Numbered from the stretch's first letter, positions 13,477 to 41,031 are shown. The stretch is 57,143 nucleotides of DNA from a bacterium (GCA_024275095.1 JAJRZV010000130.1:1-57143); one strand, 5' to 3'. Program-made: numbers and translations. The notes: generated by a model not told the origin, from the letters alone.

Positions 13477-14461
13477 TGTGGAAAACATACCGCGTGTCCC
13501 CATTTTAGAGGGACCCACGCCGGTAAAATTTCTGGAAGGTATCAGTAAATTCACGGGTGTTGAAATATGGATGAAGGATGATGGAGTAACTTCTTCCCTT
13601 TATGGAGGCAACAAAGCGCGTAAGTTCGAGTTTATTATTGGAGAAGCACTTGTTAAGAAGGCTCAAACTCTCGTTACATCCGGTGGTACGGGCACAAATC
13701 ACGGTGTGGCTGCTGTTGTGTTTGGACGCAAGTGGGGATTGAGAGTGGTGCTTCATCTTTTTGAACAGTATCTTACCGAGTACAGTCGGATGAATTATCA
13801 GGCGCTTTTAAAACTGGCGGATGAAGTTCACGTCCATGCTCGCCCGGAAAAAGCGTTTATAAAGGCATACGTGGATGCTCGCAGGCGCGCCCACGCATTT
13901 TATGTGCCTCCGGGGGGTTCAACTCCTGTGGCAAATCTTGGGTACGTGCTCGCAGCACTGGAATTGTGGGCACAAATCGACGCTGGAGAAGCCCCTTTCC
14001 CTGAAAAGATTTTTGTGCCAGCAGGTTCCCTGGGCACTGCGTGTGGGCTTATTGTGGGAAGTGCTCTGATTCCGCAACCCTTTGAAATTGTGCTTGTAAG
14101 GGTTGTGGACAGGATGGCGGTGAATTCTCTCGTGGTTCACTATTATCTCTGGAGATTAAAGAGGCTTGTAACGGCCTTGGGAGGTAAGATTGTATCCCAG
14201 CCGGTGTGGCATGTTGAGCACACGTGTTTTGGACGTGCTTACGGTGAACCCACACCAGAAGGGCTTCGTGCCATGGAGTTGTTTCATCGTTATGACAATG
14301 TACGATTGGAACCTGTCTATACAGCCAAAAGCGCAGCTGCTTTGTTGAAATATGCGAGGAGAAACACTAAAGGGCCTCTACTGTTGTGGAAAACCAACTC
14401 AGGCGTATCAGCAGATGAGCTTCTCAGGCGTACGAGTGAAGACCGGATAGAAAGAGATTGA
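13448..14461 (+). CDS. PLP-dependent D-cysteine desulfhydrase/ACC deaminase family protein
   Basis: PTPV, YGGNKARK, TNHG, PPGGS, GSLGT and LEPVYTAK motifs. Confidence 0.9.
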   Translation: MKLIEHILPDVENIPRVPILEGPTPVKFLEGISKFTGVEIWMKDDGVTSSLYGGNKARKFEFIIGEALVKKAQTLVTSGGTGTNHGVAAVVFGRKWGLRVVLHLFEQYLTEYSRMNYQALLKLADEVHVHARPEKAFIKAYVDARRRAHAFYVPPGGSTPVANLGYVLAALELWAQIDAGEAPFPEKIFVPAGSLGTACGLIVGSALIPQPFEIVLVRVVDRMAVNSLVVHYYLWRLKRLVTALGGKIVSQPVWHVEHTCFGRAYGEPTPEGLRAMELFHRYDNVRLEPVYTAKSAAALLKYARRNTKGPLLLWKTNSGVSADELLRRTSEDRIERD

Positions 14462-15227
14462 CTCCGAGAAAACAAAAAAGTGTTACAACAAAGCCGATGA
14501 TTGCCATGATAGCTGTTCTATGGCCTTTCCATCCTGCACGGAAGCGGGCATGGAGAAGTGCACCGTAGACGAGCCATGTGATGAGGGACCACGTTTCCTT
14601 GGGATCCCATGACCAGTAAGACCCCCAGGCATAATTGGCCCATACGGCACCAGTGATAATGCCCAGAGTAAGAGTAATAAAACCGAATCCCACCGCCACG
14701 TAGATGGTGTTATCAACAGCGTCAAGAAGTGACTGCTCTGCCCGCTTTTCCTGGAAAAGGTAGAAAATACCTGCTCCAAAAGCCACGGCAAACCCTGCGT
14801 AACCGAGAAAGCTGGTAATGACATGTACCGTAAGCCAGTTGCTCTGCAGCGCTGGCACGAGAGGTTCTATTTCGTTGTTGAGGAAGGACGTGTATCCGAG
14901 AGTGAGAAAGACTACAGGCATTACAAATGTACCTATCCATTTGAGGCGGAAACGGTATTCTATGACCAGAAATATGAGAGTGATGACCATGGCGAAAAAT
15001 ACAAGTGCCTCGTAAAGATTCGCAGCCGGAAAGTGTCCTGCTCCCACCTGATAGGATTCGTACCACCTGAGAAAAAAGCCAATAACCTGAAGGGCACCTC
15101 CTGTAGCAGCAGTGTAAAGTGCAACTCTATTAATCTGTTCGCTCTTGCGCAGGTAAGATATGGTATATATGAGCCATGCAATAAAATAAACAGCAAGGGC
15201 AGCAGTGGTGAATTTTTCATTCATCAT
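14424..15227 (-). CDS. ccsA: System II cytochrome c biogenesis heme lyase CcsA/ResC
   Basis: PAANLYE, LVPALQSNWLTVHV, WGSYWSWDPKETW (WWD motif), GLHSY. Confidence 0.95.
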   Translation of the reverse strand: MMNEKFTTAALAVYFIAWLIYTISYLRKSEQINRVALYTAATGGALQVIGFFLRWYESYQVGAGHFPAANLYEALVFFAMVITLIFLVIEYRFRLKWIGTFVMPVVFLTLGYTSFLNNEIEPLVPALQSNWLTVHVITSFLGYAGFAVAFGAGIFYLFQEKRAEQSLLDAVDNTIYVAVGFGFITLTLGIITGAVWANYAWGSYWSWDPKETWSLITWLVYGALLHARFRAGWKGHRTAIMAIIGFVVTLFCFLGVNLFLSGLHSYA

Positions 15228-15383: not shown

Positions 15384-15749
15384 TTACTTATGGCAGCCCT
15401 TACAGGACGTGGGTGCACCTTTGGCTTTGTTTTTCTTGTGACAGTCCTTGCAGTTTTTGTGGAAAGCTGATTTGATGGACGGGGTATTCCCTTCTTTTTT
15501 TGCCTTGTGGCAGTCACCGCACTTTTGTGGTTCCTTGCCGGAGGCTTTATCCCACTTGTGGTGGCACTCGATGCAGTTATTGTTTACAATTTCTGCATGT
15601 TTTTTGTGATCGAGTTTTACTGCGGGCTTGGCTTTCTTGTAAGCATCAAGCACAATCTGGTCAGGTGGGGCAGCAAGGGCATGAGAGAAAAGTGCGAGGG
15701 TCCCTCCCGTTGCTAGCAGGAGGACAAGTTTCACGATTTTAGACTTCAT
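15384..15749 (-). CDS. Periplasmic tetraheme cytochrome c3 (class III)
   Basis: Signal peptide; HKKH, CIECHH, CGDCH, CKDCH, CKGCH; lysine-rich. Confidence 0.93.
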   Translation of the reverse strand: MKSKIVKLVLLLATGGTLALFSHALAAPPDQIVLDAYKKAKPAVKLDHKKHAEIVNNNCIECHHKWDKASGKEPQKCGDCHKAKKEGNTPSIKSAFHKNCKDCHKKNKAKGAPTSCKGCHK

Positions 15750-15957: not shown

Positions 15958-16329
15958 TTATTTCTTGTGGCAGCCCTTACAGGAAGTGGGTGCACCTTTG
16001 GCCTTGTTTTTCTTGTGACAGTCCTTGCACTTTTTGTGGAATATGGTTTTAGCTGCAGGGGTATTACCTTCTTTCTTTGCCTTGTGACATGTCGTGCACT
16101 TTCGTGGCTCTTTGCCGGAGGCCTTATCCCACTTGTGGTGGCACTCGGCACAGTTGCCTTTTGCAATATCTTTCGCGTGCTTGCCGTGATTCAGTACCAC
16201 AGCGGGCTTGACCTTTTTGACGGCATCAATGGTCACTTTTTCGGGTGCTGCCGAAAACCCCTTGAGGGTAATAACCATAGTGGTTGCGAAGGCAACCGCT
16301 GCGACCAATGCTATCCCTCTTACCCTCAT
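15958..16329 (-). CDS. Periplasmic tetraheme cytochrome c3, paralog of 15384-15749
   Basis: Signal peptide; HGKH, CAECHH, CTTCH, CKDCH, CKGCH. Confidence 0.93.
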   Translation of the reverse strand: MRVRGIALVAAVAFATTMVITLKGFSAAPEKVTIDAVKKVKPAVVLNHGKHAKDIAKGNCAECHHKWDKASGKEPRKCTTCHKAKKEGNTPAAKTIFHKKCKDCHKKNKAKGAPTSCKGCHKK

Positions 16330-17722
16330 GCCTCACCTCCTGAATGTGTTGGAATTTCTATGCCATATTTTTTCATACGGTACTTGAGTGTGTCACGTGA
16401 AATCGACAACAACTGCGCAGCGCGAGTTTTGTTCCACTGTGCGCGCTGCAACGCCTGGATAATAAGTGATTTTTCCAGGTCTTCGAGACAAATACCTTCC
16501 GGCGGTAGGGTAAATGGAATTTCTCCGGACGAGGGTGGGGCCGGGTTCTGGGAAAAGATGAAAGCGATATCTTCTTTATCAATAACATTGCCCTCGTTCA
16601 AAATTACCGCGCGTTCAATCACGTTTTTGAGCTCCCTCACGTTACCGGGCCAGTGGTAGTCCATGAGTATTTTCAAGGCTTCACGCGAGCATCCTTTGAT
16701 ATTTTTTTGAATTCCTGGTTGAATTCTTTGATGAAGTGCTCTACGAGAATGGGAATTTCTTCCTGTCGTTCTCGGAGAGGTGGTATGCGCAGTTGAATCA
16801 CGTTGAGCCGGTAAAAGAGGTCTTCTCTGAAATTTCCCTTTTGTACCTCTTCTACAAGATTTCTGTTTGTGGTGGCAATGGTTCTTACGTCAACAGTAAT
16901 GTCTTTTGTCCCGCCCAGGCGTTTAAACGTTTTGTTTTCAAGTACTCTCAGGAGTTTGGCCTGCGAGAGAAGGGGCATTTCCGAGACCTCATCCAACAAA
17001 ATGCTTCCTCCATCTGCCAGTTCAAAGAGCCCCTTCTTGGTTACCTTGGCATCCGTGAAGGCACCTTTTTCAAATCCAAAGAGTTCGCTTTCAAGGAGTG
17101 TTTCCGGAATGGCAGCACAGTTGATTTCCATAAAGGGTTGCTCCCGCCGGGGACTGCTGTAGTGGATGGCCCTTGAGAGAAGATCCTTCCCTGTGCCGCT
17201 TTCACCTTCGATGAGTACGGTTTGAGCATTGCTTTCAGCCACTTTCCGGGCTATTCGAATCAAATTTTTCATGCTTTCAGACGCGTGAATGATGCGTGAG
17301 AAGTCGTATGTTTGATATTCTTTTTCTTTAATAGAAAAGTATTCCTGCTGGATTCGTGATTGGTTGAGTGATTTCTTTATGACAATTTTTACTTCATCGA
17401 AGTTAAAAGGCTTTGGCAGGTAATCGAATGCGTTCATTTTCATGGCTTCTACCGCTGTGTCCACGTCTGCAAAGGCTGTGATCATGATCACAGGTACGTG
17501 AGGATCTTCGTTTTTGATTTCCTTGAGCACATCAAGCCCGCTGATTCCGGGCAGCCTGATATCAAGGATTACCAAATCCGGCCGTTCTCTTTCAAAAGTA
17601 TCAATGCCTTCTTCACCTGAAGAGGCCGTGATTACTTCGTATCCTTCTCTGGTCAATTCCTTTTCGAAGGACCACCGGATGAGCTGTTCATCATCCACTA
17701 TGAGTATTTTGCCCTTGCTCAT
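16326..17722 (-). pseudogene. NtrC-family sigma54-dependent response regulator with a 1-nt frameshift in an A7 run (16702-16708)
   Basis: Receiver domain, GESGTGK, GAFTDA and FREDLFYRLNV. Adding one A gives [29 protein letters not shown] and a Fis-type HTH. Confidence 0.88.
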
Positions 17723-19122
17723 GATGCGTTCCAGTGCCTCACGGGCAGGATGATGGTTACTGTTGTTCCTTTACCCGTTTCACTTTCCAGGTGAATGGAG
17801 CCTCCGTGAAGTTCAACAATGCGTTTCGCTGTAAACAAGCCCAATCCTGTGCCCTGAGGTTTGGTGGTGAAAAAGGGCTCGAAGATGCGTTCCATCATTT
17901 CTTCGCGTATTCCGCAACCTGTGTCAGTTATTTTAATCTTTACCTTTTCCTTTTCAAGGAGAAGCATCTCTGTTTCTAATGTGAGCCTGCCTCCCGAGGG
18001 CATGGCCTGAACGGCATTGAGAATGATGTTGAGCAGTACCTGCTGAAGCTGTTCCGGGTCTGCCATGATGAATCCCACATCCGGGTCCAGCTTTTGTATC
18101 ACCTCTATACCGTGTTTCTGTGCCTGTTGTTCCAGCAGTGTGATGATCCGGTTCAGCAGTTGATGAAGGTCGACCTCTTCGAATCGAGGGCTGACCTCCT
18201 TCGCCATGGAGAGAAGGTCATTCACCGTCTTGGCAACCCGGCTGATCTGCCGGATGATTTCGTCAAAGATTTCCTGGTTTTTTGTATCGAGGGTAAGGTC
18301 TTCTTTGAGTACTTGGATTGCACCACTGATACCGGCAAGGGGATTTTTTATTTCATGCGCAATGGCAGAGGCCAACTGCCCCACTGTGGCGAGCCTGTCT
18401 GCCCGCTGAATCTGGCGGGAGTATTCCTCTTCCCTTTGCTTTATAAGAGCTTCCAGGGTTGTCAGGGTGTTGTTGAGATCCTTCATAAGGCGGGAAAATT
18501 CGGCTGCTTCTGCATGTGTGGTGTCCAGACGTGCGGAAAGGTTGCCTCTTTTTACCTCATTGAGTACTGTTACAACTTCTTTAATGGGACGGTCCACATA
18601 GCGGTCGAAGTAAAAGTACACCATGCCGAAGGCCCCTGTTACGGCAATCAACCCGAGGAGCAGGATAAGGTATCGTGCATGCGTAATCAGGGCGGAGAAG
18701 GAGGTGTTGTCCACGGTAATTTCAACAGTGGCGATTTTTTCACCACTGGTGTGGCATTTCACACACTCACCGTGTGAATACACCTTGAGTGTTTTGTGAA
18801 TTTTCAGATTGCTTACAGCAAGTTCTGGCGAAGGAGGTGTTGTTTCCCGAGGGAAGATACGAACATGAACATTACTCGAGATTCTTTCCAGTGATTTGAT
18901 ATGTTCTCTCAGTTCGCTCCCGTGTCCGGACAGCATGAGCATACGGATATCCCTTTCCAGCATGGCCATGTAATGCCGGGACAGATTTTCGGAGACAATA
19001 GCGAGTGCATCCACCACTGCCCGCTGGGTTAAATAGAATGCTCCACCGAGTACCATCACCAGAGCGATACCCAGGGCAGCTCCAAATTTAACCTTTAGAG
19101 AGAGACCTTTTTTCTCATTCAT
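17719..19122 (-). CDS. Sensor histidine kinase with periplasmic CxxCH, HAMP, HisKA and HATPase domains
   Basis: Two TM segments flank a region containing CVKCH; AHEIKNPL, NAVQAM, DTGCGI, FFTTK, GTGLGL; ATG at 19122 preferred. Confidence 0.92.
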   Translation of the reverse strand: MNEKKGLSLKVKFGAALGIALVMVLGGAFYLTQRAVVDALAIVSENLSRHYMAMLERDIRMLMLSGHGSELREHIKSLERISSNVHVRIFPRETTPPSPELAVSNLKIHKTLKVYSHGECVKCHTSGEKIATVEITVDNTSFSALITHARYLILLLGLIAVTGAFGMVYFYFDRYVDRPIKEVVTVLNEVKRGNLSARLDTTHAEAAEFSRLMKDLNNTLTTLEALIKQREEEYSRQIQRADRLATVGQLASAIAHEIKNPLAGISGAIQVLKEDLTLDTKNQEIFDEIIRQISRVAKTVNDLLSMAKEVSPRFEEVDLHQLLNRIITLLEQQAQKHGIEVIQKLDPDVGFIMADPEQLQQVLLNIILNAVQAMPSGGRLTLETEMLLLEKEKVKIKITDTGCGIREEMMERIFEPFFTTKPQGTGLGLFTAKRIVELHGGSIHLESETGKGTTVTIILPVRHWNAS

Positions 19123-19195
19123 CCCAAACTTCAGTATATAACATGTATGTTTCTGTTCATGAAAAGATTTTTTTGAGGACCTGGTGTGCCTTAAG

Positions 19196-19211
19196 AGGCA
19201 TGTTTTTTGCT
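19196..19211 (+). promoter_or_regulatory. sigma54 (-24/-12) promoter
   Basis: aGGCATGTTTTTTGCt = GG-N10-GC, 38 bp upstream of the receiver gene. Confidence 0.65.
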
Positions 19212-19248
19212 TTCTTGTGCCCTTTGACTTCATGGAGTTTTAAAAAGG

Positions 19249-19611
19249 ATGAAGATTTTTATTCTTGAAGATGAGGGTTTGGTCAGGTGGTCCCTTAGCA
19301 TCACCTTCGAAAAGCGGGGCCACTGCGTTGTGGCAGCTTCTACTGTCGGGGAAGCACGAACACTGGTAAAAAAGGATCGGTTTGATATATATCTGGTAGA
19401 TATATTTCTTCCCGATTGTTCGGGACTGGAGTTTATTGACTTTTTAAAAAAACATCATCCGGAGGCGCGAATATTCATTTTGACCGCGTACGATGATTTT
19501 CAGGCTGTCAGGCGAAAATACCTTGCAGGTTCCGTAAATGGTCTGATAAAAAAACCTTTCAATGTGGCCGAGATTATCAGTGTTGTGGAAAGTGGTTGCT
19601 CTCGATGCTAA
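19249..19611 (+). CDS. Single-domain response regulator receiver
   Basis: ILEDE, DIFLPDCSG, LTAY, KPF. Confidence 0.9.
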   Translation: MKIFILEDEGLVRWSLSITFEKRGHCVVAASTVGEARTLVKKDRFDIYLVDIFLPDCSGLEFIDFLKKHHPEARIFILTAYDDFQAVRRKYLAGSVNGLIKKPFNVAEIISVVESGCSRC

Positions 19612-20635
19612 GTGGTACCAGAAGGGTACGCTTTTAGTAGGAATTGTATTTTTTCTTTTCCCTTTTTCGTTTTTTTCAGGAGGAAGTGATTTTTATATAA
19701 CCTCGGTTGCAGCGGCTCGAGACTGGTCCAACTGCCTTGCCAGTGGATGCCATGGTCCCATGCTCAAAAGGAAAAAGGTACACCCGGCGCTTGAGGAAGG
19801 AGAGTGTACCGATTGTCATGAAAAGACGGGCAAACACAAGTTTCGGTTATCAGGAGAGGGTAATGATCTCTGTCTTTCCTGTCACGAGAATCCGGTTAAA
19901 GAGGGTGAAAATGCCCATCCGGCACTTGAGGAAGGAGCATGTACCGATTGTCACGATCCGCATGCTTCCACGCACAAAAAGCTGCTCAAGGAGGGGATCC
20001 CCGAGCTGTGCTATTCATGCCATGAAAGAAAAGACGAGACGAAGTATGTTCACGGGGCTGTGCTTCTCGGCCGCTGCTTGAAGTGTCACAAGCCCCACAG
20101 TTCCCCGTACGAGCACCTGCTTACGAAACCCAGTAGTACAGAGACGTGTTTTATATGTCATTACGATGATCTCACGGGCAGGAAAAGCGTCCATCCTGCC
20201 ATTACTGAAGGCTCATGTACCGACTGTCACAATCCCCACGGAAGTGATTTTAAAAACAACCTCGTGGCACAAGTGCCTGAACTGTGTTATAATTGTCATG
20301 AATCCAAGACAGAAGGTAAGGTTGTACACGGCGCTATTGAAGAAAAAGGGTGCTTGGGGTGCCATAATCCTCATGGATCCGATTATGTGGCCATGCTGTA
20401 CAGGGACATTTATTCATTATGCACGGGTTGTCATCCGGACCAGAAGGACGGCAGCCACATTATTACAGGCTTCAGAAGAAAGTTTCACCCTGTAAAAGGG
20501 GAAAAGGATCCGAAGCGGGAAGGTCGAGCTTTTTCATGTACATCCTGTCACAATCCCCATTCCAGCGATCATCCCTTCCTTTTTTACGAGGGCGATAGCA
20601 AGATGGAGATGTGCAAGCGATGTCATTCATTTTGA
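19562..20635 (+). CDS. Periplasmic multiheme cytochrome c (12 CxxCH + 1 CX4CH) with paired-CxxCH repeats; start uncertain
   Basis: Repeated H-P/G-A..G.CxxCH.PH.S...L....LCxxCH units; N-terminal hydrophobic segment. Confidence 0.92.
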   Translation: MWPRLSVLWKVVALDAKWYQKGTLLVGIVFFLFPFSFFSGGSDFYITSVAAARDWSNCLASGCHGPMLKRKKVHPALEEGECTDCHEKTGKHKFRLSGEGNDLCLSCHENPVKEGENAHPALEEGACTDCHDPHASTHKKLLKEGIPELCYSCHERKDETKYVHGAVLLGRCLKCHKPHSSPYEHLLTKPSSTETCFICHYDDLTGRKSVHPAITEGSCTDCHNPHGSDFKNNLVAQVPELCYNCHESKTEGKVVHGAIEEKGCLGCHNPHGSDYVAMLYRDIYSLCTGCHPDQKDGSHIITGFRRKFHPVKGEKDPKREGRAFSCTSCHNPHSSDHPFLFYEGDSKMEMCKRCHSF

Positions 20636-21093
20636 GAATTTTGAAGTCAGCGTTAATTGTTTTGATAATTGGAGCTGGATGGGGGGTGTTCTATGAGCAT
20701 GCCATAGGAGGAGATGCCTCATCTACCTCCGGTAAAACCGAACGTGTTACCCTGAGAAAACTCGAAGACAAAAAAGACATTCTCGTTATTTTCCATGTAA
20801 AGGATCCCGGAGATGTGGTTTTCAGTCATCGCAAGCACGTGCTTGGCACACGGGTGCCATGCGACATGTGTCATGGAACCCTTGGGGATAAATATCGTAA
20901 AAAAGCAGAGACGGAGGGTAAAACGTTTTACGAAGTCATAGATAAGGATTACTGCGCGCATTGCCATAAGGGAGGAGTGATTTTCAGCGTTGAGGATGAT
21001 AAGAAATGCTCGGTGTGTCATCATAGTAAAAAAGAAGAAGTGAAACCTGTTCAGCAGCACCAAAACCAGGAAAAAGAACACGGCGAGCAATGA
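20620..21093 (+). CDS. Triheme c7-type cytochrome c
   Basis: Signal/TM segment; VVFSHRKH, CDMCH, CAHCH, CSVCH. Confidence 0.85.
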   Translation: MSFILRILKSALIVLIIGAGWGVFYEHAIGGDASSTSGKTERVTLRKLEDKKDILVIFHVKDPGDVVFSHRKHVLGTRVPCDMCHGTLGDKYRKKAETEGKTFYEVIDKDYCAHCHKGGVIFSVEDDKKCSVCHHSKKEEVKPVQQHQNQEKEHGEQ

Positions 21094-22189: not shown

Positions 22190-22231
22190 AATCAGGAGGT
22201 TAAATTGGTATTTTTTGGCATGTTTTGTGCT
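22190..22231 (+). promoter_or_regulatory. IHF site plus sigma54 promoter upstream of the OmcE-like gene
   Basis: AATCAGGAGGTTA (WATCARN4TTR) at 22190-22202; TGGCATGTTTTGTGCT (GG-N10-GC) at 22216-22231. Confidence 0.75.
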
Positions 22232-26828: not shown

Positions 26829-26841
26829 GGGAGGTGGCACG

Positions 26842-32000: not shown

Positions 32001-33850
32001 CGGAGCCCGGCGTGTATGTGTTTCGTGCACGCCCGTTTGATGCTCCAGTTGCAGGGGTGGAGACGGGGGCTATGGCAACATTCGAAAAAGGAGAGAATGT
32101 TGTTCCGCAGGTCGACGTGGTGCACGGCATGTTTATAAAACCCGGGGAGACGGCGAGGATTAACGTGAAAATGAAAGGTTCAGGCGAGGGAGATCTTTCC
32201 CTCCAGTGGGAATACATGGGTGGTTACATTCCGGAAAAGTGGGATGTAAATGATTCGATCCTTGAAATTGCAGGTGGATTACCCGGAGACTTTTACCGTT
32301 TCAGAGTGGTTGCGTATAAGGGTCACTACAGGAGTGTACCCGAAAGTGTGTGGATTGCGATAGCGCAGAGACCTCTCACGGTCACTGTGCCGGATGCAAA
32401 CGGCGAGGAGGTTTCGGCCACAGTTGAAGATGAGGTGTTGAAGAAGATTACGGTAACGTTTTCGCAGATAGAAGAGAAGGCTGTCGGGCTCGGGCTCAAC
32501 GAGTATACAGGAGCGGTTCCGGAAGGCTATCGTGTTGCCGGAGGAGAAATATTTATTGCCCCCGGTGGGGTCCCTGTCGAGGCTTCTTTGAGAATAGAGC
32601 TGAATGTACCAATTGATGATGCAAAGGTGTTTTACCTTGTTTCGTCACAGGCATACCCCGTGAGAGATGTCACAGTAGAGGACAACGCTGTTGTAGCGAA
32701 AATCAGAGCTACAGGACGATATGTAATACTGGTAAAGGAGAGGAAGGTTGTGTTGCCTGTTGCATCCCGGACCAGGAGTTTCTGTTTGATCGCGGGCGTT
32801 TCGAAAGGATTTTATGGAACTTCGTTTGTGCAGGCGTTGAGGCATTTCCGGGATCAATTCCTCCGCAAGAGCCATGTTGGCAGAAAAATAGTAAGTGTGT
32901 ACTATGCTGTCAGTACAAAATATTATAAACATGTGATGAAACACTCAGCTGTAAAAACAGGACTGCGGGCCCTTCTTTTACCTGCATACCTGGGGAGTGT
33001 TCTGGCCAGACACGGTGGCCTGGCAGGTATGCTGGCAATGATAGTACTCGGCTTTATTTTAATGTTTCGGGTCGTTCAGATAAGTGGCGGCAGGTGGACA
33101 CTTTTGCTTTGTATAATAAGCGCTGCTGTAATGATGGGTTATCAGTTCGCGCATGCACTGGATTCCCCCCACGACCTGTTGAACTGCAACGATTGCCATA
33201 CGGTTCACAGCGCCCCGGGGCTTGCACTGACCTCTTCGTGGGGCAACTGGTATCTGTGCACTTCCTGCCATTCGTCCGGCAACATGGCGTCCAACTACGC
33301 TTTCAGCATCGGAGACCAGGCCGTTCCCGGCCAGCAGGGATATTCTCACAGGTGGGACGCGTATGCGAATAATACCACCTATCAGACCGTTACCCCAACC
33401 AACAGCGAGCTCTCTGTCCGGCTGGACGGCGGTAAAATAATGTGCTCCACGTGCCATGACCAGCACAGCCAGGCCGACACACCGTTTGACCCTTCTGCTC
33501 CTGCATCGGGAGCAGGTCGGCATTTTCAGCGCATTTCCAACGATGCCAATCAGATGTGTTTGGACTGCCATTCTGCGAGAAACGTAACCGATGTAAGAAC
33601 CTACACCGGAGAAAAGCTCAGCCATCCTGTGGGAGTCGCCTATGACCCTGCGACCTATGAAAACCTCAATGCAGCAATAAAGGATATTAACGGTGCTGCG
33701 CAGAGCGGCACGCGGTATGAAGTGGATGCGCCCGGTGATACGAATCCCACCAATAATTTAATTCTGGATGGTACAGGTGCTGTGAACTGCATGACGTGTC
33801 ACTGGGTACATTACACAGATGGCAATCCCTACACCATAGATAAAAGGTGA
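29033..33850 (+). CDS. Giant exported protein (Ig/PKD, NHL, Ca-binding repeats, PKD array, CFI-box-CTERM-like segment, TM, second signal peptide, pentaheme cytochrome) with one in-frame TAG at 29468-29470
   Basis: ORFs 29033-29470 and 29564-33850 share a frame joined by open codons (QPP*VKSVIVQPGLVPPGG..VDPD); C-terminal CNDCH, CTSCH, CSTCH, CLDCH, CMTCH. Confidence 0.85.
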
Positions 33851-35919
33851 GGACCATGAGGAAAGAGACAGGAGCAGTAAAAATTCTTTTATTTGCACTC
33901 GCTGTAACAGCCTTTTTCTTCGCTGTTCAAACCTGGGCGACGACACTGACCCTCCGCTCGAGCGGCAAGGACGCCTCTGATCCCGGGGACTGGACATGGA
34001 CGGGTTCGGAACTCGGTGACAACTCGGATGCCACCTACGCCAGTGCTGCGGGTAGCGGTCTCTGGTTGAGGTCGGATATTCAGCGTCCGTTTATACCGTC
34101 GGATGCTGTGATCAACTCGGTGGTCGTGTACGTGAGGGCCCGACAAACCGGGAATGAATACATAGAATTTGGCGTTTACTGTGCAGCATCGGGAACCGAT
34201 TCAACGGGCTCCAACGTTCCGAGACCCGGAAGTTCCTTTACCGACTATTCCAACTCTTTTGTCACCAATCCCTGCACGAATTCGTCCTGGACGATCACGG
34301 ATATAGAGAACCTTGTTGTCTCCATTGGAACGATCCGGAGCGGTCGCTGGTGGAGCGGAGAAATGCAGGTATCTGAGGTATGGGTGGTGGTTGATTACAG
34401 CCGGAGTTCTCTCCAGGTATTACAGAACAGGGCTGCGGTGGACTCGGATGTCCAGATCACTGTTTCTGCATTTTTCTCAGACGATGCCAATGGTAACAGT
34501 TCCACGGATTTTGAGCTCTGTTACGATTCCGGCTGCGTTTCTTCTGTTCCTGTGTGCTCTGGTGTTACAGGTTCTTCTCCGCGAAGTTGCGTATTTTCCG
34601 GACTTGCCCAGAATACGAGTTACTGGTTTCGCGTGACTCACTCGGATCCTGACGGGGTGAACGGCTCCAATCCCCAGATTATCGGGCCTTACAGGACATC
34701 CAATAACCGTGTTATTCCCGACCCTGCTGAGGCCGCTGTTGAAAGCAGTACAACGATTACCGTATCCGCTCCTTTCACCGGTGATGCAAACGGCGACTCT
34801 TCCACCACGGTTGAGCGGTGTACTGACAGTTCCTGTTCCTCTCCGGTGACCATTTGTTCCGATCTTGCCGGGTCTTCACCCCGCACGTGCGTGGACAATT
34901 CACTCAGTTCCCAAACTTCTTACTGGTTTCGTATTACATTTTCCGACCCCGACGGTGTGAACACGAGCAATGCTTCCAACCCGCAGATTATCGGGCCCTA
35001 TACAACTCCTGCTCCTGATACAACCCCTCCCGTGTTCGGTGGAATAGCGCTTGCGGAGGACATGGGCAGGGGAAGGCGCGTCAGGCTGGAATTTGATGCA
35101 GCCACGGACGAGTCTCCACCGATTAAATACAATGTCTATTACAACCTCGCTTCCAGCTGGAATGATGCTGACTGGTCACAAAATAATGTGTTGAGAGACG
35201 TGAACACGCGGCCCGGGAAAACGTACCAGTTGAAGACGTATCTGGATGGCCTGGAAGAAGGTGAAGAATATGTCGTGGGCGTAAGAGCAGAGGATGCAAG
35301 GGGCAATGAAGATACGAACAGTGTTACTCTTACGGTAATTCCCTATCCACGAATGATGAAATCAGAAGGGTATTATCTCGTTGCAGATGGACTTGCACCG
35401 GCGTCGGGCTTTAACAGGCCGTCTCAGGTGTTTGGAGACGATGTTGGTGGTACTCTGCTGGTTTATACCTGGGTTTCTTCAGGACTTGGTTTCAATGCAC
35501 CTTTTCAGGGACGCTATGAGGTTCCTTCTGTGATCACCCCTGGCAAGGCTTACTGGGTGTACAACTGGCAGCCCGGCAACCTTCTGGACGATGATTACGG
35601 ATCCCGAAACACCAGTTCACAAACCATTGTGGACCTTTTGCCCGGGTGGAACATGATCGCAAATCCATACCACAAGAACGTGCGTTTGAGAGACGTGGTG
35701 GTCACCAAGGTGAACAATCCAGGGGCCGGAGATTATACATTTGAAGAAGCCGTGCTTAACGGCTGGCTTGTAAATGCAGTGTACTGGTGGAATGGTTCGG
35801 GATACAACTGGGCAGCCTACAACGACAATCCACCTGCTAAACTGGTTCCCTGGCGGGGTTACTGGATTTATCAGAGCGATGACAGTGTGCAACTCCAGCT
35901 GAAGTTTACCAGACCGTAA
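33847..35919 (+). CDS. Secreted protein with two Cys-containing FN3-like repeats, an FN3 domain and a C-terminal PGWN/PWRGYW module
   Basis: Signal peptide; repeat ITVSA.F..DANG.SST..E.C.DS.C.S...C....GSSPR.C...YWFR.T.SDPDGVN occurs twice. Confidence 0.8.
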   Translation: MRTMRKETGAVKILLFALAVTAFFFAVQTWATTLTLRSSGKDASDPGDWTWTGSELGDNSDATYASAAGSGLWLRSDIQRPFIPSDAVINSVVVYVRARQTGNEYIEFGVYCAASGTDSTGSNVPRPGSSFTDYSNSFVTNPCTNSSWTITDIENLVVSIGTIRSGRWWSGEMQVSEVWVVVDYSRSSLQVLQNRAAVDSDVQITVSAFFSDDANGNSSTDFELCYDSGCVSSVPVCSGVTGSSPRSCVFSGLAQNTSYWFRVTHSDPDGVNGSNPQIIGPYRTSNNRVIPDPAEAAVESSTTITVSAPFTGDANGDSSTTVERCTDSSCSSPVTICSDLAGSSPRTCVDNSLSSQTSYWFRITFSDPDGVNTSNASNPQIIGPYTTPAPDTTPPVFGGIALAEDMGRGRRVRLEFDAATDESPPIKYNVYYNLASSWNDADWSQNNVLRDVNTRPGKTYQLKTYLDGLEEGEEYVVGVRAEDARGNEDTNSVTLTVIPYPRMMKSEGYYLVADGLAPASGFNRPSQVFGDDVGGTLLVYTWVSSGLGFNAPFQGRYEVPSVITPGKAYWVYNWQPGNLLDDDYGSRNTSSQTIVDLLPGWNMIANPYHKNVRLRDVVVTKVNNPGAGDYTFEEAVLNGWLVNAVYWWNGSGYNWAAYNDNPPAKLVPWRGYWIYQSDDSVQLQLKFTRP

Positions 35920-35928
35920 GGGAGGCAA

Positions 35929-36720
35929 ATGATGAAACCTGTGAACACCTTAAAATTTTTGATCGCCGTGGGAGGTGTGGTGGAGGTGCTCCTCTTTTAC
36001 AGGAGTTCCGCAACCGCATTGGAAATTCAGATGCAGGTGAATGTTGGAGAATATTCTCAGCGTCTCGTGCTTGGTGCCACCCCTTATGCACATTCAGGAT
36101 ATGATGCGCTTTTTGATGTTCCGGCCATGAAGGACGGTGGAGAGCCTTTTTTTGTGTATATCGAGAACCCCGATTCGGGTTTTGAGGTGGATGCATTCTG
36201 GAGAGATTTCGTGGACTACCTTCCACACACGTGGAAAATTGTGCTGGAAGGGGCGGCGGGTCAGGACGTGGTGTTTTCCTGGAAGGTGGACAGCGGTCCA
36301 TCATTTCGCCTCAACCGTTGCTTCCGGTCACAGGTGTTTTTCGTCGATCCTGCATCGGGCCTCAAGGTTTCCATGACAGGGCAGTCCGGTTATGCGGGAG
36401 CCGTCACTGCGGACCCCGCTGTTTTTTATGTGGAGGCTACGGATAGAAAAGTTAAACGGGTTTTACCACCGGAATGGATAAAGGTGGAAGATCGCGGAGA
36501 TTACTATCTTGTAAGGTGGGGGACAGCACGCTCCCAAGACATGGAAATAGAAGGTTACCTTCTTTATGTGGAGGAAGGGGGCAGGCTCAAGCGCGTTACC
36601 CGAGAACTCTTGAAGGGAAATGCGTACATCATCAAAAAGGAGAAGGGTGCTTCAGCTCGTTTCGGTGTACAGGCGGTTGCTGGAGGGATTTGTAGAAGTA
36701 ACATTAAATTGTCTCCGTAA
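35929..36720 (+). CDS. Exported hypothetical protein with FN3-like C-terminus
   Basis: GGAGG RBS, operon position, N-terminal hydrophobic region ending ATA. Confidence 0.7.
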   Translation: MMKPVNTLKFLIAVGGVVEVLLFYRSSATALEIQMQVNVGEYSQRLVLGATPYAHSGYDALFDVPAMKDGGEPFFVYIENPDSGFEVDAFWRDFVDYLPHTWKIVLEGAAGQDVVFSWKVDSGPSFRLNRCFRSQVFFVDPASGLKVSMTGQSGYAGAVTADPAVFYVEATDRKVKRVLPPEWIKVEDRGDYYLVRWGTARSQDMEIEGYLLYVEEGGRLKRVTRELLKGNAYIIKKEKGASARFGVQAVAGGICRSNIKLSP

Positions 36721-36741: not shown

Positions 36742-39700
36742 ATGAAAAAGATTTTTGCCAGGCTTGGTTCTATTAGATGGAAATTTGTGCTTCTTGCGGG
36801 AGGCGTGATATTAGGATTAATGGTATGGACGCTCAAGGGATATGCGCCGCCTCCCCCACCATCCACCGTAACCATGTACCCCCTCAACGTGGCTCCTGCA
36901 AGTATTGAGGAAGGGAGCACGGACGATTTCATTCGTTTTTATTTTCTCACGGACCAGGGCCAGGCATACGTAACCAGCATTACCGTGACAAAGGCAGGAA
37001 CAATTGCAGAAGGTGACGTGCAGGTGTCTCTTTACAAATCCACCAATAATGTGTGGGACGCCTCGGATACACTTCTTGCGGGACCCCAGTCCTTTGTGGG
37101 TGGTGTCACCACCTTCACCGGCTTGAGCGAGGCTGTGACAGATACCATCCAGGCCTATTATTTCATCGTGCTTTCCGTTGCCCCCGGTACAGCGGGGACT
37201 ACAGCAGGGGTAAATCTCGTTGACCCGTGCTTCAGCGTGGATGTGGGAGCACCCATATGTACCACAACCGATTACGCGCCTGTTCCTGTCCTCGCCGCAG
37301 GTCAGGTTCCGGACGTTCTTGTGGTGGAGCCTTACGATATCGCACCTTTTTACGCTGCACCAGGGGAAACGGATGTTCCCGTGCTTAAACTGGACATGTA
37401 TGCACTTTCCAATACGGTGGTGTGGACTGCCCTGACAGTGTATCTCTCCGGCACAAATGCAGCGGATACTGATGTCGCCAGCGTGAAAATCTACAAGGAA
37501 AGCGGGGTCACCCCCGGATTCCAGTCCTCGGAGGACACGTTGATTTCCTCGGGGACAGATGTTTTTTCCGGCGGCGTTACCACTGTTGATATCCTCACAT
37601 CTGAGGTGATCGGAGGCACACCTGAAACATACTACCTTGTTTATGACGTGGCCTCCGGCGCCAATACGAATGCGAACATAGGGGCCACTGTCCTGAGCGA
37701 TTCGTTTGCGGTGGCTTCTCCGGACGTGGTATCCTCCCTGAATCTGCCTTTCTCCAGCAAAGAGATTGACATTATTGTGCCCGATTCCACTATCGGCACG
37801 CTGGACTACGTGGTTTCCTCCTGCAACCAGGTGGTCCTTTCCTGGTTTTTTACAGGGGATGAGAACAATAATAGCTACACGTATTTTGAATCAAGTACGG
37901 ATGCAACGTGGGGTAATGCAGATGACGTGGTTGTTTGTGCAGAGGTTTCTAGTGTGCCTCCGAGAAATTGCACGGTGGTCGGCATAGACCTGTCGACGAC
38001 TCCACTCTACTTTCGTGCGGTCCACTATGATCCCGATGGTACGTCAGGCGGGACTTTTGTCACTGCCCAAACGGCATACGTTGATGTGGGGCCGGTGGAT
38101 TGCACAGTTGTCACCGGCAATCCACCGGTGGTGAACATTCTTAACCCCGCAGATGGTACAGTTGTGGCCGGCAACGCGGCATATCCTGTAACCGTCCAGG
38201 TATCGGTGTGGGACCTTGAAACAGCTCCTTCAAACCTCACTGTGGAGATTTCCGTTGATGGCGGTGCATGGGATTCCACAGGATGGCTTTACAATCCCAA
38301 CTGGGAAAACGTGGATATCAATCTTTACGTGTACGAGTGGCCTTGGAGACCCACGACACCGGGTCTGCATACACTCGCTGTGAGGGCACGCGATGGGGAT
38401 GGCAATGCGGGGTATGCTTACTACAACGTGCGTGTGTATGTGAACGCAGTTACCACCGTGTCCGTGGGTGATTATGAAATGTTCCCCGGGAGCGGCCTGT
38501 TGCTCGTGAGGGGTGGAGCGAGCATCATGTGCATGTCGTGTCATAATGTATCCACCCATGGCGGTTACGTGTGGTCCAGTACAAAGTACGGTAACTGGGC
38601 AATTAACTGTCGCATCTGTCACGTGCCTCACGGCACGCGGAATATTTACCTTATCACGGAGAACATAAAGACACCCTCCAGCGGTGTGAAGAGTGTGGAT
38701 TTCCGGGCCATTACCGGAGACCCCGCTGTGGATCTGGGGCTCATGGGTAACATGCAGGACGGTGTGGATTCCAACGTGTGCGAGGTCTGTCATACGAAAA
38801 CCACGCATTATAAGAACACCAACCTCGGTGATGACCACGGAGGAAAGGACGGCATCGACTGCACGGCGTGCCACCCTCACGCACAGGGATTCAAGCCGGA
38901 ACCCGAAGGGCGTGGTGGGTACAACTGTGCCATCTGCCACCCCGATCTTTTCCAGCCCATTAACACCTCAACCACCACCTATCACCACTATCTGAACAAT
39001 GCAGAACCCATTTATCCCGAAATTCTCACACCGTCAGAATTGCCCACCGACACCACGGATAGGAACTGTCTTATATGTCACGCAGACCATGATATATTCA
39101 GGCCTGATCTCAATCCCGACAACACCATCGGTCGCGCCGCCAACCTGAGGGTGGACATATCGACGGCTCCAACAACCACCTCGGGATTTACCAACACAGA
39201 TTTTGACTCGTCCACAGGAACGAGCATATGCATTTCATGCCCCAAAGACGTGATGAACAAGAACACGACCACCCGGAACAGCAGCGATGGAGTGACTCAG
39301 ACAATCGTTATAGATGGCACGGCATTCCTCTCCAGCATTCACAATTACACCATACCCATGACCATTGCCACGGATGGTTCTATATTCAATGCCAACTGCA
39401 TCAAGTGTCATAACGACACCATGTCTCCCAAGAGTTCAGTCAATGCCTATACGGGCTCTCCCTTCGAGCTTGCGCCTCATGACTCAGCTCTTCGCTGGAT
39501 TCTCAACCCCTTTGATTTGATTGCCAGTGACCCGCTGGAGGAGGATTTCTGTTACAAATGTCATTCTGGAGATGTGGCCGGGAAGGACTATTTTGGGGTT
39601 GCTTCTATGACTGCAAGGGCGAGAGGCATCCAGTCACAGTTTGCAAAAACATACATTCACCCCATCACTGCATCAGGCAGGCACAAGACCATCGAGGGCT

Positions 39701-41031
39701 CATCGTACGGCTGGTTGCCTGCTGATTCACGCCATGTGGAATGCACGGACTGTCACAATCCTCACAAGACCGCCCAGGGAAACCACACCCCGGGAAGCGG
39801 GGGCTTGGGCGCTGCCAATCAGGGTGTATGGGGCGTGCAGATTACGTCCGAGGGCGACGTGTATTCGGCAGGAACCGCGGATTTCACCAATGGTTCCTGT
39901 ACGGTCACTGGAACCGGCACGGCGTGGACCACCATACCCAATCCCACAGAATGTAACATCCACTGCACCACGGATACCAAGAAGATCAACTATCCGATAG
40001 CTTCGGTTGACAGCGACACCCAACTCACCATTCTGGACCTGAGGGGTTCGGGGGCATGTTACGAGGGATCCTGTGGTGCCGGGTCCAGCTACGAAATCGT
40101 ATGCCCGCGTAATCTCCAGTACGCGCGCGTGGAATCAGTGAACAACCAGTACGAAATCTGCTTTAAGTGTCACACCCCCTATGCTTGGGACCTTACGCCT
40201 CCGGTGACCCTTTCGGGTGGTCCCAACGGGCAGGTGTGGGCGGAAACCGATGTCGCTCAGGACTTCAGCACGCATAATCTTGCATACCATCCACTATTTG
40301 CCCCGGGCCTTTTTCAGCCCCCGGATGACGCCAATCCGTATTGGGATGGCAGTGCCGCCTATGGCAACAAGGCAACGACAGCTACCGCCTGTCCCAATGC
40401 CAATCCCAACGCAGGCTATGACAACACCTTTGTGGATTGCTGGGGCAAGCAGTCACTGGTTACGTGTTCCGACTGTCACTCCACGGATGCTCCCGGGAAT
40501 GACATCCCCGAGGGACCCCACGGGTCCGCGTTCAAGTGGTTGCTCAGGGGTGTTGACCCGAATGTTACTGTTACGCTGGCGGACGGTACTGTAATTTACC
40601 TTAACCAGGATGCCAATGTACAAACATATCCCCGGATGTTCTGCGTGAACTGCCACCGTGCAGACGTGTATTTCCCATTGTATTCTTCAAGTACGTTTTA
40701 CTGGGATCTTTCTCGCTACCAGCACGACGACCCCAACTCCAGTTGTTTCGGTACAGACCTTGTGGATGGAGAGGGTACGCGATTTGAAAACCCGTGCATG
40801 AACTGTCACGGCGGGCGCTCGCCCGGTCAGATCCACGGCTCCAACTTGGGAGTGGGCTCCCTGGGTTCCTCGCCCCAAGGATTCCGCTTCATGAACGGTT
40901 CTTCGTGGGTGGGGCACACCACGGGCCTCACGGGCGGGACGTGTTATACTCTCAGCGCGGCGAACGATTTGAGCACGTGTACCCAGCATTCCACAGGAAG
41001 GAGTTATACGGGCATGAACTTTTCGTATTGA
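36742..41031 (+). CDS. Large extracellular multiheme cytochrome with N-terminal Ig-like domains (13 CxxCH + degenerate CISCP)
   Basis: Signal/TM segment, about 590 aa of T/V/S/D-rich beta domains, then a CxxCH array. Confidence 0.92.
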   Translation: MKKIFARLGSIRWKFVLLAGGVILGLMVWTLKGYAPPPPPSTVTMYPLNVAPASIEEGSTDDFIRFYFLTDQGQAYVTSITVTKAGTIAEGDVQVSLYKSTNNVWDASDTLLAGPQSFVGGVTTFTGLSEAVTDTIQAYYFIVLSVAPGTAGTTAGVNLVDPCFSVDVGAPICTTTDYAPVPVLAAGQVPDVLVVEPYDIAPFYAAPGETDVPVLKLDMYALSNTVVWTALTVYLSGTNAADTDVASVKIYKESGVTPGFQSSEDTLISSGTDVFSGGVTTVDILTSEVIGGTPETYYLVYDVASGANTNANIGATVLSDSFAVASPDVVSSLNLPFSSKEIDIIVPDSTIGTLDYVVSSCNQVVLSWFFTGDENNNSYTYFESSTDATWGNADDVVVCAEVSSVPPRNCTVVGIDLSTTPLYFRAVHYDPDGTSGGTFVTAQTAYVDVGPVDCTVVTGNPPVVNILNPADGTVVAGNAAYPVTVQVSVWDLETAPSNLTVEISVDGGAWDSTGWLYNPNWENVDINLYVYEWPWRPTTPGLHTLAVRARDGDGNAGYAYYNVRVYVNAVTTVSVGDYEMFPGSGLLLVRGGASIMCMSCHNVSTHGGYVWSSTKYGNWAINCRICHVPHGTRNIYLITENIKTPSSGVKSVDFRAITGDPAVDLGLMGNMQDGVDSNVCEVCHTKTTHYKNTNLGDDHGGKDGIDCTACHPHAQGFKPEPEGRGGYNCAICHPDLFQPINTSTTTYHHYLNNAEPIYPEILTPSELPTDTTDRNCLICHADHDIFRPDLNPDNTIGRAANLRVDISTAPTTTSGFTNTDFDSSTGTSICISCPKDVMNKNTTTRNSSDGVTQTIVIDGTAFLSSIHNYTIPMTIATDGSIFNANCIKCHNDTMSPKSSVNAYTGSPFELAPHDSALRWILNPFDLIASDPLEEDFCYKCHSGDVAGKDYFGVASMTARARGIQSQFAKTYIHPITASGRHKTIEGSSYGWLPADSRHVECTDCHNPHKTAQGNHTPGSGGLGAANQGVWGVQITSEGDVYSAGTADFTNGSCTVTGTGTAWTTIPNPTECNIHCTTDTKKINYPIASVDSDTQLTILDLRGSGACYEGSCGAGSSYEIVCPRNLQYARVESVNNQYEICFKCHTPYAWDLTPPVTLSGGPNGQVWAETDVAQDFSTHNLAYHPLFAPGLFQPPDDANPYWDGSAAYGNKATTATACPNANPNAGYDNTFVDCWGKQSLVTCSDCHSTDAPGNDIPEGPHGSAFKWLLRGVDPNVTVTLADGTVIYLNQDANVQTYPRMFCVNCHRADVYFPLYSSSTFYWDLSRYQHDDPNSSCFGTDLVDGEGTRFENPCMNCHGGRSPGQIHGSNLGVGSLGSSPQGFRFMNGSSWVGHTTGLTGGTCYTLSAANDLSTCTQHSTGRSYTGMNFSY

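Follow-up and report, generated by a model that had tools for sequence, protein, structure and literature searches.

A probable OmcE/Uet-type electron-transfer locus in a deep-branching, uncultured bacterium

The subject of this work is a stretch of bacterial DNA of 57,143 nucleotides (GCA_024275095.1, JAJRZV010000130.1:1-57143; hereafter the window), in which the region from 14424 to 41031 holds a cluster of multiheme c-type cytochrome genes. Two of the encoded proteins resemble OmcE, the cytochrome of solved extracellular filaments, and among their neighbours are a large barrel, NHL propellers and a heme lyase subunit. We read this cluster as probably an OmcE/Uet-type extracellular electron-transfer system.

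Contig C108, to which the window corresponds in full, belongs to a metagenome-assembled genome (MAG) of 2.45 Mb, 136 contigs and 97% completeness. A genome search limited to the phylum of the host (one genome per species) returned the host as its sole member, and the 40 nearest genomes offered are related to it at the domain level only. The GatB protein of the host is 56-58% identical to named proteins of Thermodesulfatator, Thermodesulfovibrionaceae, Nitrospirota and Sulfurihydrogenibium, and 66-67% identical to proteins on two other contigs. The host is a deep-branching, uncultured bacterium which, by these comparisons, lies far from Geobacteraceae; an initial annotation of the window had rightly suggested that it was possibly outside this family.

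Gene content of the locus

The initial annotation had counted 57 CxxCH motifs in ten open reading frames (ORFs) between 14424 and 41031, and this number proved exact. On the minus strand the motifs are found at 15384-15749 (4), 15958-16329 (4) and 17719-19233 (1), and on the plus strand at 19562-20635 (12), 20611-21093 (3), 22304-23068 (4), 26770-27561 (4), 27720-28739 (7), 29564-33850 (5) and 36742-41031 (13). No CxxCH motif was found in the 30 ORFs listed outside this region. Genome-wide there are 23 ORFs with at least two such motifs (167 motifs), and nine of these ORFs (56 motifs) lie inside the locus. The main genes are the following.

22304..23068, plus strand: E1, a stand-alone OmcE-family tetraheme cytochrome of the A type, in a UetA-like position before the barrel gene (match to 7TFS; four CxxCH motifs).
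26770..27561, plus strand: E2, an OmcE-family tetraheme cytochrome of the J type, encoded as a separate gene (match to 7TFS; eight invariant His).
27720..28739, plus strand: 7-heme cytochrome with its own signal peptide (seven CxxCH motifs), corresponding to the C-terminal part of the 11-heme protein that relatives encode.
24112..25809, plus strand: predicted large outer-membrane beta-barrel of 565 residues and about 24-28 strands (AlphaFold2 model, structural matches, profile comparison).
21090..22127, plus strand: NHL beta-propeller 1, probable lipoprotein (…LFSAC; NHL, E 3.6e-37).
25806..26828, plus strand: NHL beta-propeller 2, probable lipoprotein (…LPFSC; NHL, E 1.2e-17).
19562..20635, plus strand: 12-heme periplasmic cytochrome, MtrA/DmsE-like (six stretches of paired CxxCH motifs).
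20611..21093, plus strand: triheme c7-type cytochrome with an N-terminal hydrophobic anchor (TIGR04257 nanowire_3heme, 42.8 bits, cut-off 40; Cytochrome_C7).
15384..15749, minus strand: tetraheme cytochrome c3, paralogue A, with a signal peptide (PF02085, E 8.1e-15; four CxxCH motifs).
15958..16329, minus strand: tetraheme cytochrome c3, paralogue B (PF02085, E 1.8e-13; four CxxCH motifs).
14424..15227, minus strand: CcsA/ResC-type cytochrome c heme lyase subunit (PF01578, E 7.8e-54).

Several other components that the initial annotation had named are likewise present: the heme lyase, which is of the CcsA type; three NHL propellers (21090-22127, 25806-26828 and residues ~70-316 of the ORF at 29564-33850); and a two-component system, made up of a kinase and a sigma54 activator, the latter frameshifted. 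From its two candidate barrels the 565-residue protein was retained, whereas a protein of 318 residues was not called a barrel. Its three sigma54 promoters are reduced to two, at 22216 and 28965. As for the very large cytochromes with immunoglobulin (Ig) domains, a protein of 1429 residues indeed has an Ig-like region and 13 hemes, whereas an ORF of 1428 residues turned out to be a composite of two proteins.

The OmcE-like modules E1 and E2

The OmcE-type tetraheme cytochromes proposed for the locus are borne out by comparison with two solved structures, OmcE of G. sulfurreducens (7TFS) and of D. soudanensis (9YUQ). E1 matches 7TFS with an E value of 1.7e-25 and 9YUQ with 3e-19 (phmmer), and the values for E2 are 7.2e-29 and 1.2e-17, respectively. 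E1 has four CxxCH motifs and four conserved distal His; nine His were counted in E1 and eight in E2, the true start of which is probably about 35 codons downstream of the start of its ORF. In an alignment of 23 family members eight His are invariant (H63, H86, H89, H136, H183, H232, H235 and H261 in E2 numbering), namely those of the four CxxCH motifs and four more, including the His of an N-terminal H-[ND]-L-S motif, and the same eight are invariant in alignments A4 and A5. By their matches to the solved structures, E1 and E2 are true OmcE homologues. In OmcE filaments one of the hemes is ligated by a His of the neighbouring subunit (PMC9473688). E1 is the best candidate for a filament subunit in this locus and the one most likely to polymerise. 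A complex prediction with two mature E1 chains and four hemes scored 0.02 against a mark of 0.42; this gives no verdict, and we used it neither way.

A scan of genomes, one per species, gave at least 581 confirmed loci, of which the best 80 were analysed and are called the related loci below. Going by record titles and labels in the tree, they carry 15 phylum labels, ranging from Planctomycetota and Pseudomonadota to Zixiibacteriota, and at least 7290 relatives of E2 were found at E <= 1e-5 among 8000 scored candidates. By tblastn (E <= 1e-5) the 7-heme cytochrome is found in 79 of the 80 loci, NHL proteins in 78, the 12-heme cytochrome in 70, the kinase in 22, the sigma54 activator in 20 and CcsA in 14, and neither c3 nor the triheme cytochrome was found in any. 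There is a recurring gene order, in which a 12-heme cytochrome is followed by a stand-alone OmcE-like tetraheme, an NHL protein, a small cytochrome with 4-5 hemes, a gap of about 2 kb, a second NHL protein, another OmcE-like module and the 7-heme part. Two or more OmcE-like ORFs are present in 52 of the loci.

The 7-heme homologue follows directly after the E2-type module in 79 of the 80 loci. In 71 of them the J-type module and the 7-heme part are fused into one ORF of about 500-570 residues and 11 hemes, in seven the J-type module is a separate tetraheme as in the window, and two loci are other cases. By this arrangement, E2 and the 7-heme cytochrome are the split form of an 11-heme protein, with E2 as its N-terminal module.

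The modules were also compared in a tree of 136 rows (a quick IQ-TREE run with support from the Shimodaira-Hasegawa-like approximate likelihood ratio test only; 14 of 147 hits with too few motifs or odd module lengths were dropped). A branch with 95% support has on one side 77 of the 80 modules in the J position together with one A-position row and E2 of the window, and on the other side E1 with 50 of the 51 stand-alone A-position proteins. The rows nearest to E1 come from two loci of Acidobacteriota (L008 and L051). The tree points to the A-type and J-type modules as two ancient paralogues. Profiles were built from 24 randomly chosen modules of each type (out of 45 A-type and 79 J-type), each with the window's own module added. 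The A-type and J-type profiles score 7TFS almost equally (166.6 and 166.0 bits); both paralogues are of the OmcE family, and OmcE of Geobacter may belong to either type. The scores on 9YUQ, 150.9 bits for the A type vs 129.7 for the J type, lean towards the A type.

The outer-membrane barrel

A search of 1.84 billion representatives gave a single homologue of the 565-residue protein, 33% identical to it, and the protein belongs to no Pfam family. Its AlphaFold2 model shows about 24 long antiparallel strands, with a mean predicted local distance difference test score (pLDDT) of 65.6; most of residues 50-300 are above 80, and residues 318-417 are below 50. A Foldseek search with this model gave 204 matches in the PDB at E <= 0.001, and the rows shown are all large outer-membrane barrels. 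After re-alignment MtrB comes first (Z 20.6, root-mean-square deviation 4.8 Å over 421 residues), tied with the PapC usher (Z 20.4), and TonB-type receptors score Z 16-18.6. With moderate confidence, the model suggests that this protein is an outer-membrane barrel.

Direct sequence searches do not connect it to the related loci: tblastn with the 565- or the 318-residue protein found neither in any of the 80, and phmmer found nothing for either among the ORFs of these loci. The gap at the corresponding position, inspected in 38 of the loci, is filled by a heme-free ORF, mostly of 650-720 residues and usually ending in ...RRxF, and the order A-type gene, NHL, small cytochrome, heme-free barrel of about 700 residues, NHL, J-type gene recurs among the loci. 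We aligned 32 of these ORFs, since six of the 38 were wrong-frame overlaps or had lengths outside 500-760 residues. In an hhalign comparison the 565-residue protein matches this alignment with a probability of 85.9% and E 5.2e-6 over 260 columns, which argues that the window's barrel is a very divergent member of a conserved family that has not been modelled. Three of the cluster barrels were scanned against Pfam and none of the three has a family; they seem to form a barrel family that lacks a model and is particular to OmcE/Uet-type clusters. We also note that heme-free outer-membrane proteins of the clusters are about 590-790 residues long (e.g. L014:6835-8940, L060:1354-3717 and L008:7267-9045), and that in most of those listed the C-terminus is an aromatic residue preceded by an RRx motif.

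Periplasmic cytochromes and heme maturation

By Pfam both c3 cytochromes are class III tetraheme proteins, and they are 62% identical to each other; the second NHL propeller is 37% identical to the first. The 12-heme cytochrome scores 157 bits with the NCBIfam family GSU2203 (cut-off 325) and 130 bits with the DmsE family (cut-off 192), and is a candidate for a wire that is either inserted in the barrel or periplasmic. Besides CcsA of the locus, the genome encodes two more CcsA paralogues. No ResB/CcsB was found within the window, and the ResB matches of the genome are confined to contigs C86 and C61. A CcsA gene lies within 10 kb of an OmcE-like gene in 14 of the 80 related loci, which hints at a dedicated maturation subunit.

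Two side observations concern these genes. Firstly, the CcsA paralogues were examined in the window and on contigs C61, C85 and C86; there are three CcsA vs two ResB matches in the genome, and the two genes stand side by side only on C61. Secondly, a 9-mer, ACGTGACAC, precedes each of the c3 genes on the strand that encodes them (15812-15820 and 16390-16398, minus strand), with a third copy at 27851-27859 (minus strand). Three copies in the window compare with 0.44 expected, and 2 of 100 shuffled sequences reach three. The 9-mer may be a shared operator site for the c3 genes.

The adhesin-like gene, E3 and other accessory genes

The remaining genes encode secreted or surface proteins.

29033..33061, plus strand: adhesin-like surface protein (signal peptide, Ig/PKD-like, NHL, bacterial TSP3, K319L-PKD and CFI-box-CTERM domains).
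33062..33850, plus strand: E3, an OmcE-like module of five hemes that begins with a signal-peptide-like segment and shares the reading frame of the adhesin (hhalign).
33847..35919, plus strand: secreted fn3/Ig-like protein of 690 residues (fn3).
35929..36720, plus strand: secreted protein of 263 residues (no Pfam or NCBIfam match).
36742..41031, plus strand: protein of 1429 residues with an N-terminal hydrophobic segment, a poly-Pro linker, an Ig-like region and 13 hemes (CxxCH motifs, domain scans).
23159..24115, plus strand: secreted protein of 318 residues with a beta-rich N-terminal part followed by calcium-binding TSP3 repeats (TSP_3; signal peptide).

The adhesin-like gene is interrupted by an in-frame TAG (29468-29470) that cuts an ORF of 145 residues with the signal peptide from the ORF of 1428 residues (29564-33850); the homologue in a locus of Thermoanaerobaculia (L052) is one uninterrupted ORF. 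Recoding of TAG is unsupported: a single TAG in frame was met, and 131 of 1474 long ORFs terminate with this codon. CFI-box-CTERM is a domain that normally ends a protein. Here it occupies residues 1074-1140 of the 1428 (nucleotides ~32783-32983; 50.8 bits, cut-off 40), and the adhesin part has no stop of its own: it continues into a hydrophobic stretch, after which a signal-peptide-like segment begins at M1167 (ATG at 33062). The ORF is a composite, in which an adhesin-like protein runs into the OmcE-like module E3, and in the window this fusion is either real or the result of a lost stop. A stop/start overlap TAATG (33060-33064) was considered as the frameshifted end of the adhesin and rejected, as a few codons before it the other frame is already closed by stops.

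E3 matches the OmcE-family alignment A1 in hhalign (probability 96.4%, E 1.2e-9) with all four CxxCH regions and the distal His aligned, and its fifth heme motif follows the OmcE-aligned part; phmmer gave no direct match of E3 to 7TFS. A stand-alone homologue of 233 residues and five hemes (L060:7939-8640, Zixibacteria) is 36.7% identical to E3; its gene is immediately preceded by that of an NHL protein with a type IX secretion sorting tail and immediately followed by that of a 13-heme giant. Natural fusions of E3-like modules to Ig-like or NHL domains, with no internal signal peptide, occur in two further loci (L070 and L042). Taken together, these three contexts indicate that modules of the E3 type keep company with adhesin-like proteins. 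Clear homologues of the 13-heme protein were found in two of the 80 loci only, L060 (245 bits) and L052 (155 bits), in both after E3-like genes, and in L052 the part homologous to the 690-residue protein is fused to the 13-heme protein. For the 263-residue protein the best Atlas score is 0.79, which we take as a lead only.

The 318-residue protein occupies the position that a peptidyl-prolyl isomerase (PPIase) has in relatives (in L008, between the A-type gene and the barrel). Its homologues match the TSP3 repeats only, covering 15-53% of the query, and the N-terminal part is poorly folded in the AlphaFold2 model (mean pLDDT 54.5). The Atlas lead for it is OMP_b-brl/TSP_3. With such a model, and with homologues that have just the repeats in common, we did not call it a barrel.

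Regulatory genes and promoters

The regulatory genes lie between the c3 genes and the 12-heme gene, and the promoters precede E1 and the adhesin-like gene.

16326..17722, minus strand: sigma54-dependent response regulator with receiver, AAA+ and Fis helix-turn-helix domains, in two frames (Pfam).
17719..19233, minus strand: sensor histidine kinase with one CxxCH (C157) in a loop between two transmembrane segments (HisKA, HATPase_c, weak HAMP).
19249..19611, plus strand: single-domain response-regulator receiver (PF00072, E 2.6e-19).
22216..22230, plus strand: sigma54-type -24/-12 promoter TGGCATGTTTTGTGC, intergenic, 74 nucleotides before the start codon of E1.
28965..28979, plus strand: sigma54-type -24/-12 promoter TGGCATTTTTATTGC, intergenic, 54 nucleotides before the start codon of the adhesin-like gene.

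One piece of the activator gene (16673-17722) has Sigma54_activat (E 2.2e-68) and Response_reg, and the other (16326-16676) has AAA_lid and HTH_8; the frameshift falls at a run of seven A near 16712, and the homologues in related loci are single ORFs. In the kinase the transmembrane-like windows are at residues ~43-70 and ~178-210, with the CxxCH at 157 between them, and a CxxCH near the N-terminus is present in 4 of 21 homologous kinases of related loci. From this layout the kinase is a candidate for a periplasmic heme-c redox sensor. The promoter pattern TGGCAY-N5-KTGC has two sites on the coding strand in 57 kb, where 0.53 are expected and 12 of 100 shuffles reach two. For a third sigma54 promoter the search gave just TGGCAT-N5-TTCC, a weak site that falls within the 3' end of the activator gene.

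An in-frame TAA was seen elsewhere in the genome, within …VCVV*GAIP… of the NiFe hydrogenase small subunit (G000 contig C7:17290-18201), at a position which we take to be a conserved Glu in other small subunits. This TAA, the TAG at 29468 and the frameshift at the run of seven A together suggest scattered single-base errors or variants in the MAG.

Borders of the locus

Upstream the locus is flanked by a ribonucleotide reductase and a PALP enzyme. The downstream edge is marked by an IS200-like Y1 transposase at 41084-42079 (PF01797, E 2.3e-10), directly after the last cytochrome gene. Further on, two long ORFs overlap on opposite strands (43583-44692, minus; 43610-44911, plus), the plus-strand ORF (433 residues) having no Pfam match.

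Proposed function and alternative explanations

Starting from the homology of E1 and E2 to solved OmcE filaments, the barrel fold, the domain content and the synteny across phyla, we infer where the proteins may lie, which of them may polymerise, which may sit within the barrel and in which direction electrons may flow. Periplasmic donors would reduce c3, and c3 would pass electrons to the c7 triheme and the 12-heme protein, and these in turn to barrel-associated cytochromes. From there the electrons would reach the OmcE-family proteins, which would carry them outside the cell, with E1 as the likeliest polymer. E2 and the 7-heme cytochrome would act as a split undecaheme of the UetJ type, while E3, the adhesin-like protein and the 13-heme giant would be surface accessories. 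The two NHL lipoproteins probably help in assembly or stabilise the complex, and the putative heme-c sensor kinase would, with the sigma54 activator, drive the promoters before E1 and the adhesin gene.

The periplasmic hydrogenase of Desulfovibrio classically passes its electrons to tetraheme c3. A NiFe hydrogenase is encoded in the host genome as well, and its small subunit carries a twin-arginine signal (SRREFL). Marker searches of this 97% complete genome found no DsrA above cut-off, no COX1 (heme-copper oxidase) and no ACS, in a search that covered four families only, so that other reductases may exist. The hydrogenase and c3, taken with the absence of these three markers among the matches, lead us to favour electron export, e.g. 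from periplasmic H2 oxidation via c3.

Several points weigh against an OmcE/Uet-type export system. The barrel model is of moderate quality, and TonB-type receptors match it nearly as well as MtrB. The link between E3 and OmcE is at the profile level only, and the fusion of the J-type module to a heptaheme domain in most relatives sits awkwardly with E2 as a simple filament subunit. A quinol oxidase and CcsB are not in the locus, and the activator frameshift and the adhesin TAG may mean that the locus is partly inactive, or that the MAG contains errors. Deletion of probably related cytochrome genes in D. ferrophilus did not abolish Fe(III) oxide reduction (PMC9769857). Finally, Uet systems are proposed for uptake, so that electrons may flow in either direction.

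One competing explanation, which we consider a minority possibility but a live one, is a porin-cytochrome complex without filaments, in which E1, E2 and E3 would be monomeric and located on the surface or at the barrel, much as in MtrCAB. It would agree with MtrB as the best structural match of the barrel, with the MtrA/DmsE-like character of the 12-heme protein, and with the J-type module belonging, in 71 of the 80 loci, to a single 11-heme protein, which the Uet preprint describes as a bar-shaped heme wire (10.1101/2022.05.06.490989). Against it, none of the heme ligands of the two solved OmcE filaments is lost from E1 or E2, the N-terminal His motif included, both solved structures of the OmcE family are filaments, and pilus ushers match the barrel equally well.

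Rather unlikely, in our view, though still a live rival, is a conduit that works inwards as suggested for Uet. Its electrons would come from Fe(II), from minerals, or from a cathode or a partner cell, and in the periplasm c3 would hand them on to a reductase. Multiheme wires are reversible, as established for Mtr/Mto. The architecture resembles the uet cluster, which is proposed for uptake in Tenderiales and Gallionella (10.1101/2022.05.06.490989; PMC10734462), and the NHL/cytochrome clusters of D. ferrophilus are reported to be raised on starvation for the electron donor (PMC5815863). However, no obvious sink for incoming electrons was seen among the four marker families searched, and a periplasmic uptake hydrogenase together with c3 fits an inner source of electrons.

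A decaying or mis-assembled locus, non-functional as read, is improbable: the activator frameshift, the TAG and missing stop in the adhesin-E3 gene and the TAA in the hydrogenase would speak for it, but the ORFs of all ten cytochromes, of both NHL proteins and of the barrel are intact and retain their conserved residues, single-base defects in a MAG of 136 contigs are as likely to be sequencing or consensus errors, and natural adhesin-E3 fusions exist in L070 and L042.

The electron-transfer system that we prefer over these alternatives is more limited than the one initially described. The locus is not self-contained, as it has no CcsB, no recognisable inner-membrane quinol oxidase, a frameshifted activator and a large gene with a stop; in all, three of its genes look disrupted. 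The formation of filaments and the export (as opposed to uptake) of electrons, which may apply, had been stated too firmly.

A far more speculative extension, which we ourselves regard as improbable in its full form, is a division of labour within one wire, with E1 as the filament, the split undecaheme as an adaptor at the base and E3 at the tip, combined with the notion that omcE and uet are one ancient machinery. E2 would dock on the end of the filament through the normal subunit interface and the heptaheme part would span the barrel to the 12-heme protein, whereas E3, with the NHL/PKD adhesin and its surface-sorting signal, would cap the distal end and bind a mineral or a cell. In Petersen et al. 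(2026) no anchor or tip candidate is named in OmcE operons, and the discussion treats nanowire secretion, anchoring and termination as an open question (PMC13712944). If true, the base and tip assignments would supply the anchor and tip candidates that those operons lack in that account, and omcE and uet would go back to a single ancient machinery, with at least 15 phylum labels among the loci of this study.

A shared origin and a very wide spread are suggested by our data for omcE, known from metal reducers, and uet, known from electron-uptake bacteria; should the shared origin be true, the annotation of extracellular electron transfer in metagenomes should change. Experimental studies could start from four candidates: the barrel family without a Pfam model, the paired NHL lipoproteins, the OmcE-like module within the 11-heme protein and the 5-heme module tied to an adhesin. 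The locus is also the first clue to the lifestyle of a host that is the sole member of its phylum in the genome set searched.

Comparison with known systems

It is useful to compare the locus with the omcE clusters of Desulfuromonadia. According to Petersen et al., the smallest omcE clusters always contain two multiheme cytochromes, two beta-propeller lipoproteins, OmcE and a large beta-barrel, OmcE homologues with such neighbours occur in five phyla, and OmcE-like proteins with five hemes exist (PMC13712944). The window has each of these parts, namely the 12-heme and 3-heme cytochromes, two NHL proteins with lipobox-like N-termini, E1 and the 565-residue barrel, and the combination seen initially, of OmcE with NHL lipoproteins, multiheme cytochromes, a large barrel and CcsA, corresponds to this published minimal list (PMC13712944). 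Shared with the omcE cluster are an OmcE-family tetraheme with all heme ligands, two NHL lipoproteins, a large barrel, further multiheme cytochromes and an adjacent gene for cytochrome maturation. There are also clear differences. The window has three OmcE-like modules where the omcE cluster has one, and c3 in place of PpcA-type carriers. It has no block of glycosylation genes and no purHDE...ffh flanks, and its host belongs to a different phylum. The barrels are barely related in sequence, the likeness of the clusters being drawn from the published description. In Desulfuromonadia, following the same source, omcE lies between purHDE/resB-ccsB and genes for tRNA(Val) modification and ffh (PMC13712944); this flanking synteny is not found in the window, where ccsA alone adjoins.

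The second system is the uet cluster. The Tenderiales preprint lists uetA-J as a tetraheme cytochrome, a PPIase, a 28-strand barrel, three c7 triheme cytochromes, a cupredoxin, two NHL proteins and an undecaheme cytochrome, followed by ccsAB (10.1101/2022.05.06.490989), and the cluster is proposed for electron uptake in Tenderiales and Gallionella (ibid.; PMC10734462). The window shares this architecture in its extracellular tetraheme (UetA), large barrel (UetC), two NHL proteins (UetH/UetI), c7 triheme, 11-heme unit and CcsA, the Tenderia proteins being matched by description. It differs in that the single undecaheme UetJ is replaced by 4 + 7 hemes in two genes, the 7-heme protein having a signal peptide of its own, in having one triheme and not three, in the absence of CcsB and in gene order; Pfam scans found no PPIase or cupredoxin family in any protein of the locus. 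The 80 related loci fit the uet parts list, with the fused 11-heme protein in 71 and a PPIase in L008. One paper names both Uet and OmcE and draws no connection between them; the supplements of PMC13712944 and of the Uet preprint may already hold some such links. Our comparison suggests that the omcE and uet clusters are one family.

Two further systems are more distant. In D. ferrophilus IS5, seven multiheme cytochromes and two NHL proteins are reported in close proximity (DFE_0448-0451 and DFE_0461-0465; PMC5815863; PMC9769857; FeGenie, PMC7005843), and some of these cytochromes are predicted to be extracellular. The likeness, which extends to periplasmic chemistry of the c3 type, is by description only, and no porin is reported for D. 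ferrophilus (PMC9769857), whereas the window has one. With MtrCAB (PDB 6R2Q) the window may share a large barrel (Z 20.6) paired with an MtrA/DmsE-like periplasmic multiheme cytochrome, with the reservations that ushers and TonB receptors also score Z 18-20 and that the 130 bits of the 12-heme protein are below the DmsE cut-off of 192. In sequence the window's barrel is not homologous to MtrB, OmcE-family proteins stand in place of MtrC/OmcA as outer cytochromes, and NHL lipoproteins are present.

The initial annotation had suggested a new variant. For the core this does not hold, as it recurs in 80 loci under 15 phylum labels and resembles uet: its kind is already known and very widespread, and it does not amount to a new system. 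Unusual features are confined to the accessory parts and the split or fused forms. What is new is the lineage, the split undecaheme, the 5-heme OmcE-like module linked to an adhesin and the very divergent barrel, to which the 13-heme giant and the two c3 cytochromes can be added as variant features.

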